A stretch of DNA of 62,097 nt, filler included, from Nitrospirae bacterium CG2_30_53_67 (GCA_001873285.1; 3 parts of 3 records of this genome joined end to end with filler, not necessarily neighbours in it); one strand, 5' to 3'. Shown: positions 1 through 62,051, numbered from the whole stretch's first letter. A program made the numbers and translations. Notes: generated by a model not told the origin, from the sequence alone.

Positions 1-40
1 GAACAAATTTACCGTGTCAACGCGGGTCTGCGACAAAAAT

Positions 41-66
41 GCCTGTCCTCCGACTGGATCGGGGGA
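41..66 (-). repeat. Free-standing copy of a 25-26 bp hairpin unit
   Basis: GCCTGTCCTCCGACTGGATCGGGGGA is the exact reverse complement of 107-132. Confidence 0.85.
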
Positions 67-94
67 TTGGTACACATCAGGATTATATAGGGTT

Positions 95-227
95 GTCATT
101 GTCCGGTCCCCCGATCCAGTCGGAGGACAGGCCCGACCGGACAATCCACCCTTCGACAGGCTCAGGGTGACAATTGTCATGGTGAGCTTGTCGAACCATG
201 GATTCCCCGATCGAGTCGGGGAATGAC
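95..227. repeat. Composite palindromic REP/MITE-like element (GTCATT...AATGAC ends), copy 1
   Basis: Ends GTCATTGTCCGG and CGGGGAATGAC; internal inverted TTCGACA(G/A)GCTCA units; near-identical inverted copy at 5790-5925. Confidence 0.85.
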
Positions 228-270
228 GCTCTCAGAGAAATATTTACCCATAAATTTGTCGCACACCCGA

Positions 271-5789: not shown

Positions 5790-5925
5790 GTCATTCCACG
5801 ACCCTCCGATCGGGGGATTGGAGGGCATGCTTGATCGGGGAATCCATGGTTCGACAAGCTCACCATGACAATTGTCACCCTGAGCCTGTCGAAGGGTGGA
5901 TTGTCCGGTCGAGCCGGACAATGAC
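5790..5925. repeat. Composite palindromic REP/MITE-like element, copy 2 (inverted relative to 95-227)
   Basis: Core is the reverse complement of the core of 95-227; carries a different hairpin insert at 5802-5829. Confidence 0.85.
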
Positions 5926-14629: not shown

Positions 14630-14988
14630 GGTTCTTCTCCCATTTAGTGGGTAAAAAGGGTTACGCTTCGCGTTCCCCGCTTTTCTCTGTTTTTGCCGTC
14701 TGCGACGGCTACTACACTAATGTATCTTGGGGTCGAGGGTTGAAGAACCATAGGGTTATAGGAGTCAAGGGGTCAAGGATTCAAGTGAAATACTGATACC
14801 GGTAAACCGAGTACAAGAACGCAAGCAAAATCTCCAGAGAAAAACACTTGAACCCTTGAACCCTTGAACCCTTGAACCCTTGAACCCTAGGACCCTCGGC
14901 CCCTTATGTTTTTAGCACTTCACTTGACCCCTGGAATCCTTGACCCCTTCACCCCTGATGTTTTCACACACTCTTTTGGAGATGATCT
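14630..14988. mobile_element. MITE family A, longest copy, with 8-bp tandem repeats
   Basis: Imperfect terminal inverted repeats GGTTCTTCTCCCATTTAGTGGGTAAAAA / TTTTCACACACTCTTTTGGAGATGATCT; (CTTGAACC)x5 at 14847-14886; related copies at 17307-17347, 19917-20041, 44707-44963. Confidence 0.8.
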
Positions 14989-19916: not shown

Positions 19917-20041
19917 AGATCATCTCCAAAATAGTGGGTGAAAACATCAGGGGTCAAGGGGTCAAGGATTCCAGGGTTCACTTGACCCCTTGAACCCTGG
20001 AATCCTCGAACCCTTTTTACCCACTATATGGGAGAAGAACC
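19917..20041. mobile_element. MITE family A, short copy in inverted orientation
   Basis: AGATCATCTCCAAAATAGTGGGTGAAAA ... TTTTTACCCACTATATGGGAGAAGAACC with internal inverted 8-bp repeat arrays. Confidence 0.8.
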
Positions 20042-26870: not shown

Positions 26871-26970
26871 NNNNNNNNNNNNNNNNNNNNNNNNNNNNNN
26901 NNNNNNNNNNNNNNTTAATTAATTAANNNNNNNNNNNNNNNNNNNNNNNNNNNNNNNNNNNNNNNNNNNN
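26871..26970. other. Artificial contig linker
   Basis: 100-nt N block with central TTAATTAATTAA (stops in all six frames) at 26915-26926. Confidence 0.95.
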
Positions 26971-27197
26971 CTCGTCCCATGTTGACTTCCACTTCTACAA
27001 CAGTGTCGTCCTTCCCAACGCGTCACTTTCGGGGCTCAATCCCTTCAACCAATCGGCTTACGGCCTGCCAGCTTGCTATCTTACGCTTAAAGAAGGATGT
27101 TACCGCCCTCCCTCCAAAGACTCGCTACCCGGTGGCTGGCTTACCTTCCGGGGCGGGATTCTCACCCGCTGGATGATACGACCTTGCCCGGTCGCAC
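26971..27197 (-). mobile_element. Group II intron, 5' end (domain I), truncated by contig end
   Basis: Minus strand begins GTGCG-ACCGGGCAAGGTCG, then GGGTGAGAATCCC, CACCGGGTAGCGAGTCTT, GGTAAC, GCAGGCCGTAA, ATTGAGCCCCGAAA, typical of bacterial group II intron domain I. Confidence 0.75.
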
Positions 27198-44249: not shown

Positions 44250-44260
44250 GCCGGAACTTA

Positions 44261-44442
44261 GTGGTCCTATTCGTAAATACGGTCGCATTCGAGGGTCGTA
44301 GGGCGGCCTCATCTGCGTTCCGCTCCTTGCGGCGTACCAGAGGGTACGCCTCAGTCGCGCGCCTTGATAAGACCGCCCTACGACCCTCTACCGGTAAACC
44401 GAGTACAAGTCGGTACGTTACCCTATTTACGAACAGGACCAC
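44261..44442. mobile_element. MITE family B, copy 1 (carries a 21-bp insert)
   Basis: TIRs GTGGTCCTATTCGTAAATA / TATTTACGAACAGGACCAC; TTA on both flanks; near-identical copy at 61866-62028. Confidence 0.88.
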
Positions 44443-44459
44443 TTAGGAAAGGTGTGATC

Positions 44460-44706: not shown

Positions 44707-44963
44707 GGTTCTTCTCCTCTACGAGCCCTCGGCCATATAGTGGGTAAGAAGGGGTCAAGGATTCCAGGGGTCAAGGGGTCAAGTGAGATACTGAAATGCA
44801 ATCAAAATCTCCAGAAAAAAACACTGGAACCCTTGACCCTTGATGTTTTCAGCACTTCACTTGACCCCTTGAATCCTTGACCCCTCGGACCCTCAAGTCT
44901 TGAAAAGCACTTCACTTGACCCCTTGAACCCTTATGTTTTCACCCGCTCTTTTGGAGATGACC
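44707..44963. mobile_element. MITE family A copy between thrS and infC
   Basis: Same ends and 8-bp repeat arrays as 14630-14988; 16-bp insert at 44718-44733. Confidence 0.8.
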
Positions 44964-61460: not shown

Positions 61461-61865
61461 ATGAAATGGTTCATGATTTTTTTTTCATGTATGATGATCT
61501 CATTTGGGCTTTCCGCTTCATTGTTTGCAGACGACAATCAGAATGCCGTCACCTTGATTAACAGCAACGATTACCCGCCCAACAACCTGGTGCTTGCCGT
61601 TGATAAACTGGGCCGCGGGGTCCTCAATACCGCCTTCGGTGTGGTGGAGATTCCAAAGCAGTCCATCAAAAGGTCCATTGACACCGACAGTTCCTATGGT
61701 TACGTTTCCGGTTTCTTTATAGGAATCGGATATTTCGTCCTCAGGGAACTCTCCGGTGTTTATGAGATCGTGACGTTCCCCTTCCCGGTTCCTGCCGGCT
61801 ATGCGCCTGTGATTGACCCCATCCTGGGATACAAGCCGAAAATCATACCCAAAATTTCCGACTAA
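61461..61865 (+). CDS. Exosortase system-associated protein (TIGR04073-like)
   Basis: Signal peptide; KLGRGVLNTAFGVVEIPK...RELSGVYEIVTFPFPVP. Confidence 0.8.
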   Translation: MKWFMIFFSCMMISFGLSASLFADDNQNAVTLINSNDYPPNNLVLAVDKLGRGVLNTAFGVVEIPKQSIKRSIDTDSSYGYVSGFFIGIGYFVLRELSGVYEIVTFPFPVPAGYAPVIDPILGYKPKIIPKISD

Positions 61866-62028
61866 GTGGCCCTATTCGTAAATACGGTCGCATTCGAGTG
61901 CCGTAGGGCGGCCTCATCTGCGTTCCGCTCCTTGCGGCGTACCACAGTGGGTACACCTCAGTCGCGCGCCTTGATGAGACCACCCTACGACCCTCTCGGT
62001 ACGTTACCATATTTACGAACAGGACCAC
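61866..62028. mobile_element. MITE family B, copy 2 (empty of the 21-bp insert)
   Basis: Same TIRs as 44261-44442; TAA on both flanks, the left one being the stop codon of the upstream gene. Confidence 0.88.
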
Positions 62029-62051
62029 TAAGTATGGAAGGTCTCACTCAA

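Follow-up and report, generated by a model that had tools for sequence, protein, structure and literature searches.

Short CANG-tailed hairpin units in a groundwater Nitrospirota-like genome: probable miniature REP-like mobile insertions

A stretch of DNA of 62,097 nucleotides (the window, taken here at its full length with the filler that joins its parts) contains a composite repeat whose two copies each carry a short hairpin insert that the other lacks. The question raised by this locus is whether such inserts are pieces of DNA that move and, if so, what moves them. The source genome (G000) is a groundwater Nitrospirota-like MAG of 2,365,998 bases in 183 contigs with a GC content of 53%. The closest relatives of its HemB protein are found in Nitrospirota/Nitrospirae MAGs (70-74% identity), and the metagenome runs that contain its DNA come from groundwater and aquifers. 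Three of its contigs make up the window:

1-26870: contig C76
26971-44518: contig C81
44619-62097: contig C84

All inserts of the window lie within intergenic repeat DNA. The interval 24-268 is found downstream of the stop of a TerC gene, and 5790-5925 separates hemD/cobA from hemC. An Rfam match to group-II-D1D4-6 (67.6 bits, window 26960-27162, minus strand) was noticed right at the beginning of contig C81. The inserts, the repeats that carry them and the corresponding empty sites are as follows:

24..268, unstranded: outer MITE-like element with inverted ends GGGTCTGCGACAAA / TTTGTCGCACACCC (also written GGGTCTGCGACAAA/TTTGTCGCAGACCC)
42..66, minus strand: type I unit, free-standing in the arm of the outer element, 25 nt, hairpin followed by CAGG on the minus strand
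95..227, plus strand: double-hairpin composite, copy 1, GTCATT-GTCCGG..CCGGAC-AATCC..GGATT-CCCCGA..TCGGGG-AATGAC
107..131, plus strand: type I unit TCCCCCGATCCAGTCGGAGGACAGG, at the stem/loop junction GTCCGG^C(T>C)CGA in the left hairpin of composite copy 1
5790..5925, minus strand: double-hairpin composite, copy 2, inverted relative to copy 1
5802..5829, plus strand: 28-nt insert of type I, CCCTCCGA-TCGGG-..-TTGGAGGG-CATG, with a 3-nt scar GGA
14797..14817, plus strand: type II unit TACCGGTAAACCGAGTACAAG, 21 nt, TACCGG-TAAA-CCGaGTA followed by CAAG, within an octamer-flanked repeat (host a)
44256..44447, plus strand: host b MITE, filled copy, ends CTAAGTGGTCC.GTTCGTAAATA
44389..44409, plus strand: type II unit TACCGGTAAACCGAGTACAAG, at ACGACCCTC^TCGGTAC of host b
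44785..44809, plus strand: empty host-a site, GAGATACTGA^AATGCAATC, compared with 14787-14830
61861..62033, plus strand: host b MITE, empty copy, with the empty site between 61996 and 61997

A previous, sequence-only reading of this DNA had described the two composite copies as differing by one insert each. Aligned with the reverse complement of copy 2, copy 1 is indeed collinear except for gaps of 25 nt and 28 nt. The 25-nt unit was also said to occur free-standing and inverted, and 42-66 is a 100% match of 107-131. The 21-mer TACCGGTAAACCGAGTACAAG, which ends in CAAG, is present at both 14797 and 44389, again as described. Both TCCCCCGATCCAGTCGGAGGACAGG and TACCGGTAAACCGAGTACAAG thus occur twice in the window, compared with 0 occurrences expected from 100 shuffles.

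Alignment of filled with empty alleles gives exact unit ends at several sites for both the 25-nt and the 21-nt units. The host b copy at 61861-62033 is identical to that at 44256-44447 minus the 21-mer, an exact 21-nt indel, and 44785-44809 is the empty counterpart of the filled site at 14797. The empty counterpart of the 42-66 site is found on another contig (C182:964) and reads AAAAATG^TTGGTAC; since no base is common to both ends, this unit is exactly 25 nt long. The unit at 107-131 is absent from composite copy 2, and the genome contains 20 empty sites of its position.

The carrier repeats are themselves numerous. There are 25 paired copies (96-262 nt) of the outer MITE-like element, which in the window encloses both the 42-66 unit and composite copy 1. 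The double-hairpin composite, with the consensus GTCATT-GTCCGG-CTYGA-CCGGAC-AATCC ... GGATT-CCCCGA-TCRAG-TCGGGG-AATGAC, is present in 47 paired copies of 37-397 nt. Twelve of these have a plain form of 66-71 nt; others include a 63-nt near-palindromic centre in either orientation, and some centres are cut down to minimal forms of 37 nt. Host b, whose 71 paired copies have a basic length of 161-163 nt, carries a type II unit in 13 copies, 12 at the site seen at 44389 and one elsewhere, and the host a position is filled in 14 copies and empty at 69 sites. Hosts a and b are unrelated repeats, and both hold the 21-mer. Host a is flanked by 8-nt tandem arrays (GGGGTCAA/GGGTTCAA/GGATTCCA; window 14744-14960, 19940-20025 and 44742-44950), which supply the most abundant 12-mers in G000, with as many as 201 copies.

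A k-mer search of the whole genome recovered the 25-nt unit in six exact copies and in 19 with up to three mismatches, and the 21-mer in 24 and 31, respectively. For the 28-nt insert there is one exact copy, and two with up to two mismatches. A genome of the same genus (G001) was used for comparison. The orthologous hemD/hemC spacer of that genome lacks the composite and is unalignable, and a type III site (C155:20349) is approximately 23 nt shorter there and has no unit, in sequence too diverged to give exact ends; two further comparison sites are not syntenic or not clean. For two units at unique sites of contig C72, no empty allele was found among metagenome contigs (four runs from four studies, 0-1 differences). 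This result is no evidence either way, since contigs hide rare variants.

Three families of units can be distinguished in the genome: type I (30 copies), type II (43 copies) and type III (26 copies), the last of which is absent from the sequence-only reading. Type I is 25 nt long, with the pattern [YCCYCCGA][TCNAG][TCGGRGGR][CAKG]. Type II (21 nt) follows [NNCCGG][TAAA][CCGaGNN][CARG], and type III (24-36 nt) consists of CCTGTCTGC..loop..GCACAGG followed by CAGG. All are imperfect hairpins with CA[G/A/T]G at the 3' end or, read on the opposite strand, C[C/T/A]TG at the 5' end ahead of the hairpin. Crude ORFs include 3/30 copies of type I, 5/43 of type II and 4/26 of type III; the rest are intergenic. 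An Rfam search of the units matched no family, and a search of the literature for the units as literal strings returned only unrelated primers.

The families were counted with regular expressions that required the tail. Because of this, two surveys that do not demand it are important. A tail-free search for the hairpin gave 94 matches, in which the most frequent following words are CAGG (19), CAAG (4) and CATG (3), in agreement with the CANG tail proposed for the insert ends; the chance level is approximately 1.2% per end. Among the 90 host hairpins whose arms pair perfectly, 39 are filled and the remaining 51 are empty. The loops of the empty hairpins are uniform (CTCGA 23, CTTGA 23, CTGGA 5). 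By reading of the list, approximately 34 of the 39 filled hairpins have CA[GAT]G, or C[ACT]TG when read on the opposite strand, where the tail should be; of the remainder, three contain no unit (partial duplications of the host) and two have variant tails.

Insertion follows defined rules. Flanking sequences fall into 32 classes (4 for type I, 9 for type II and 19 for type III), and in 31 of these there is no flanking direct repeat of more than 2 nt, which bears out the claim that no target is duplicated. The uncertainty of the boundaries, given earlier as 1-2 nt, is wider than this: it amounts to 0-3 nt in 31 of the 32 classes and to 5 nt in one type II class. Type I is found directly 3' of the 5' arm, ahead of the 5-nt loop, in 26/26 occupied host hairpins, and its left flank is CCGR in 25/29 cases. 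Type II uses the same junction but in the opposite orientation (8/8 host hairpins), and type III occupies either stem/loop junction. For types II and III no left-flank tetranucleotide is conserved, and many type III copies lie within unique DNA. Filled and empty alleles together support the earlier proposal of one class of ultra-short units, each a hairpin with a tetranucleotide, that insert precisely and mostly into structured repeats and into one another.

Units nest at the equivalent junction up to four deep. For example, C144:3961-4131 resolves into four whole 25-nt units of alternating orientation, and similar nests occur in other copies. Alternation is what a strand-specific target, CCGR^CTNGA, predicts for nested type I units. 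Copies within host repeats should not be counted as independent events, since a filled host can itself multiply. One peculiarity concerns type I units of the TCGGAGGACAGG kind (window 107-136). These are followed by a loop CCCGA in 9/10 host hairpins, and also in nested copies and in G001. This loop is found in 0/51 empty hairpins, which have CTCGA, CTTGA or CTGGA instead, and simple insertion does not explain it.

Deletion also shapes these loci, as the 28-nt insert and the shortened centres illustrate. The sequence-only reading had treated this insert as a hairpin ending in CATG, on a par with the others. It is not a primary unit, however, but a 25-nt unit plus a 3-nt scar left by a lost nested unit. 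A variant of it on contig C169 corresponds to a nested pair on C26 minus the 22 nt between two GATCGGG repeats.

As DNA without their surroundings, the units form weak folds (z -0.7 to -3.0, with three units between -0.7 and -1.4). The plus strand of the 42-66 unit gives -6.2 kcal/mol (z -2.3) and the 28-nt insert at 5802-5829 gives -8.1 kcal/mol (z -2.95). In their host context they fold well (z -3.9 for the 107-131 unit, and -3.2). Stems are 6-10 bp in units of 21-36 nt, and they are kept by compensatory change: the two outer pairs of type II covary (TA/TA 24, CC/GG 11, CA/TG 1). Type I has 240 arm pairs: 211 Watson-Crick pairs, 26 that read C.A on one strand (and therefore G.T on the other) and three of the reverse kind. 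Of the 29 pairs that are not Watson-Crick, 26 are consequently G.T when read on the strand with 5'-CNTG ahead of the hairpin. This asymmetry points to a functional form that is single-stranded, either DNA or RNA.

That the units are mobile insertion elements is, in our view, very likely. More specifically, they are probably three families of miniature REP-like mobile insertions, whatever the nature of the mover. On this proposal each unit would be non-autonomous DNA which is now, or was recently, copied or moved as a defined piece of 21-36 nt. It would insert precisely and without target duplication, mainly at the stem/loop junction of other DNA hairpins. Two MITE families and the GTCATT double-hairpin element would serve as targets, as would units already in place. 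The four-deep nests would build up by successive insertions and would lose parts through slippage between short repeats, the 28-nt insert being one such product. The active form may be single-stranded, with the strand that carries CNTG and the hairpin as the structured one. Recognition would involve hairpin and tag together, as for REPs by RAYT proteins or for IS ends by HUH transposases, and the enzyme would act in trans from a gene that is not beside the units.

An HUH enzyme of the Y1 type, as suggested in the sequence-only reading, is a tentative candidate for the mover, with the balance somewhat against it. In 12 genomes, 52 Y1_Tnp loci were examined (three in G000, six in G001, 13 in G003/G005/G007/G031 and 30 in G041-G047), and 0/52 are flanked on both sides by units; nor are three further Y1 fragments of G000 flanked by units. 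Three Y1 loci have one type III or type III-like unit within 1.5 kb. The Y1_Tnp genes of G000 comprise a complete gene on contig C69 for a 326-aa protein (Y1 plus a DnaA_C-like part), a multi-copy gene at contig ends and several fragments. The MAG is 95% complete, so a cognate gene may have been missed there. G031, which has 122 type III copies, encodes a single RAYT, flanked by a different REP of its own, and two closed chromosomes with 34 and 48 type III copies have only weak partial Y1 matches (35-41 bits). The IS91-type domain Y2_Tnp was not found in seven of the eight other unit-bearing genomes, which include G001, G031 and two closed chromosomes. No orientation bias of the units was seen relative to local GC skew on contigs (15:11, 15:16 and 7:9). 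In view of the lack of a unit-flanked Y1 gene, the absence of Y2 from most other unit-bearing genomes and the lack of an apparent orientation bias, the HUH reading is a working analogy and not a demonstrated mechanism.

Several observations were made on these loci in passing. A 17-mer, ATAGGGACAGCGCCCAT, is present in 28 copies in G000 and ends several different IS-like elements, including the multi-copy Y1_Tnp gene (C109:43316-43673, C125:13490-13770, C85:1-500, C154:18200-18455, C103, C137 and C149). Stuttered partial copies stand ahead of it, and its positions are also those of assembly breaks. In G001, a gene for a 324-aa protein with Y1 and HTH parts (L106, G001:C15:1-1998) has its own stuttered terminal repeats in a TIRtron-like layout and is directly followed by a plain double-hairpin element. 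Proteins of 1220-1283 aa with a partial Y1_Tnp-like stretch (35-41 bits) are encoded at L304, L297 and L139 (G042, G045 and G007); a type III unit lies approximately 290 nt upstream of the gene in G042. One broken IS200-like gene (L299) also has a type III unit, approximately 170 nt upstream. It was set aside as a candidate, as no tie between this unit and an IS end was found.

The alternative that survives best, though we consider it unlikely, requires no dedicated transposase. The units would spread by template switching during replication or by short-patch gene conversion between hairpins: a growing strand that has halted at an extruded hairpin would copy the loop of another, with the shared CCGA/TCGG arms as microhomology. 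A CCGR-loop-YCGG core is indeed common to type I units, their targets and host hairpins. Deletions between 7-nt repeats are clear (the 28-nt insert and the 37-nt minimal centres), and no enzyme gene is linked to the units. However, some occupied sites have no homology to the unit (AAAAATG^TTGGTAC, ATACTGA^AACGC and ACGACCCTC^TCGG), and the flank classes of type III number 19, many of them in unique DNA. The ends of the units are also exact to the nucleotide, and their orientation is constant. Conservation of the outer arms of type III from phylum to phylum speaks for recognition of a specific sequence and against template switching.

Less probable again is a function at the RNA level, in which the units would be terminators or mRNA-stabilising stem-loops and the tag a part of that function; this is compatible with mobility. 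The almost exclusively intergenic position of the units and the restriction of G.T pairs to one strand fit such a role. Moreover, for types II and III the strand with CNTG and the hairpin is the sense strand in 20/28 cases between genes of the same direction, although these copies do not count as independent. For tagged REPs, a similar case is made by Di Nocera et al. (PMC3733652). Against this, the sense of type I is split 5:4, and the alternating orientation of nests leaves half of the nested units unreadable in the favoured sense. A function would not in itself explain precise indels.

A third alternative, which we regard as slightly less credible still, is that a structure-specific nuclease cuts hairpins at the junction and that repair then copies other hairpins, so that the units would be homing-like passengers. 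Insertion at the stem/loop junction agrees with this, and there is a candidate: a 105-aa GIY-YIG gene (PF01541, 57.5 bits; G000:C25:10253-10567, L113 1489-1803) occupies the centre of a double-hairpin element, and two decayed remnants lie by hairpin arms. Only one copy is intact, however. The small GIY-YIG genes of four relatives lie outside such hairpins, G031, for all its 122 type III copies, has only a GIY-YIG match of UvrC size, and the insertion sites that are not hairpins would be unexplained. The last codons of the C25 gene are encoded by a hairpin arm, and the remnants, at C166:2195-2269 and C78:550-633, derive from its C-terminus; the GTCATT double-hairpin repeat may have this gene as its coding ancestor. 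Elsewhere in G000, where two units up to 4 kb apart have a gene between them, this gene is an ordinary one.

Rolling-circle transposition of the IS91 type, by a Y2 HUH enzyme, is very improbable. As described in PMC13181058, the IS91 family makes no target duplication, cuts beside hairpins and carries a tetranucleotide, 5'-CTTG/GTTC, next to a subterminal palindrome at oriIS. The units resemble it in having no duplication and a tetranucleotide beside a palindrome, so that the tail could be the counterpart of CTTG/GTTC, and G000 has one Y2_Tnp match, on C71. The lack of Y2 in 7/8 other unit-bearing genomes nevertheless largely refutes this explanation, and tag and hairpin are arranged as the mirror image of oriIS. 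The only match in G000 runs off its contig and has a stop within it. At this locus (L112, G000:C71:17202-19401), a Y1-like N-terminus continues in frame into a zinc-finger and Y2 (IS91-like) transposase. Either the gene is recombinant or the join is chimeric.

The equally remote possibility that nothing inserts and that short alleles are deletions from ancestral long forms can draw on the 28-nt deletion product and the truncated centres, but deletion cannot account for the bulk of the data, since the 51 empty hairpins have uniform 5-nt loops, empty sites are the majority in hosts a and b, the 39 filled hairpins hold three unrelated families at two junctions, and the same unit is found in unrelated hosts.

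If the units are REP-like mobile insertions, they should be compared with systems already described. In REPIN-RAYT systems (Enterobacteria, Pseudomonas) a hairpin and its foot tetranucleotide are likely recognised by a single-strand-specific enzyme. The present units share their extragenic location, their tens of copies and the combination of hairpin and foot tetranucleotide. Unlike REPtrons, they flank no RAYT/Y1 gene (12 genomes), and unlike REPINs or BIMEs they are single or nested and form no regular inverted pairs (pairs within 4 kb). IS200/IS605 elements make no target duplication, insert 3' of a short word and are recognised by hairpin plus tetranucleotide. The lack of duplication, the position of type I 3' of CCGR and the presence of Y1 genes in G000 are similar. 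The differences are that each unit has one hairpin instead of distinct left and right end hairpins, that the left flank varies in types II and III, that no strand bias was seen relative to GC skew and that no parent IS with such ends is present.

The small dispersed repeats (SDRs) of cyanobacteria are another parallel. Elhai et al. in 2008 reportedly found the 21-nt SDR5 of heterocystous cyanobacteria inserted precisely into the HIP1 repeat, and these SDRs are also said to nest. The likeness lies in very small modules (21-27 nt in the SDRs) at a defined position of another repeat. The phylum is different, and the sequences are likely to differ. We know of no enzyme for the cyanobacterial SDRs.

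The closest likeness in anatomy is to tagged REPs. According to Di Nocera, De Gregorio and Rocco (2013; PMC3733652), these are palindromes of 20-40 nt with stems of 6-13 bp and an unpaired conserved tetranucleotide at one end, which defines the GTAG and CGTC super-families. The same work describes sub-families with complementary stem changes, frequent G.T pairs and variable self-complementary loop cores; some families sit inside other palindromes, and the CGTC class has no dedicated transposase. The present units agree with this in length (21-36 nt), stem (6-10 bp), unpaired end tetranucleotide, complementary stem changes, G.T pairs and dispersed, mostly extragenic copies. Type III also has variable self-complementary loop cores, and units occur inside palindromes. 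Types I and II, with 21-25 nt, are close to the lower size limit. They differ in the tag, C[C/T/A]TG (CA[G/A/T]G) instead of GTAG or CGTC, which is alike in form and would be a third one; in being single, not head-to-head or tail-to-tail dimers, and nested up to four deep; and in the abundance of exact filled and empty alleles. What sets the units apart is the new tag, the single or nested organisation and the wealth of exact filled/empty alleles.

A bolder reading, which we consider possible and rather doubtful, is that CNTG mini-hairpins add a third super-family, one that crosses phyla, to the tagged REPs. They would then be the smallest self-nesting mobile units documented to date with exact filled/empty alleles, and the enzyme that moves them would act in trans and be distinct from both a flanking RAYT and IS91. 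In that event the mover could be an unlinked HUH protein or a new stem/loop-junction nuclease-ligase that acts on extruded hairpins.

It has long been asked how REP-like repeats multiply. G000 provides an unusually clean record for this question: base-exact units of 21-25 nt, empty sites by the dozen, an insertion junction and an orientation that are both fixed, nests of four, and a sister family that extends over many phyla. These are defined substrates for biochemistry (unit, tag and target junction). On the practical side, the nests break assemblies and can be mistaken for a CRISPR-like or regulatory structure. The presence or absence of type III over phyla could be used to look for the mover by phylogenetic profiling.

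G001 has 12 copies of type I and two of type II, and neither type was found in the genomes of 39 further relatives. The strict type III pattern is absent from G001 and present in 7 of 41 relatives' genomes, with its 122 copies in the distant G031. In a wider scan, type III is found at no fewer than 123 loci over many phyla; among the matches listed are Planctomycetota, Latescibacterota, Thermodesulfobacteriota, Verrucomicrobiota, Nitrospinota and others. Three closed chromosomes contain 34, 48 and 91 copies. In a closed chromosome the copies form regional runs with no two-replichore pattern, the origin not having been located. The type III hairpin, CCTGTCTGC..GCACAGGCAGG, has a variable self-complementary core (G031, G042, G045, G046 and loci L170-L249), and its copies are often clustered, with partial duplications of the 5' arm.
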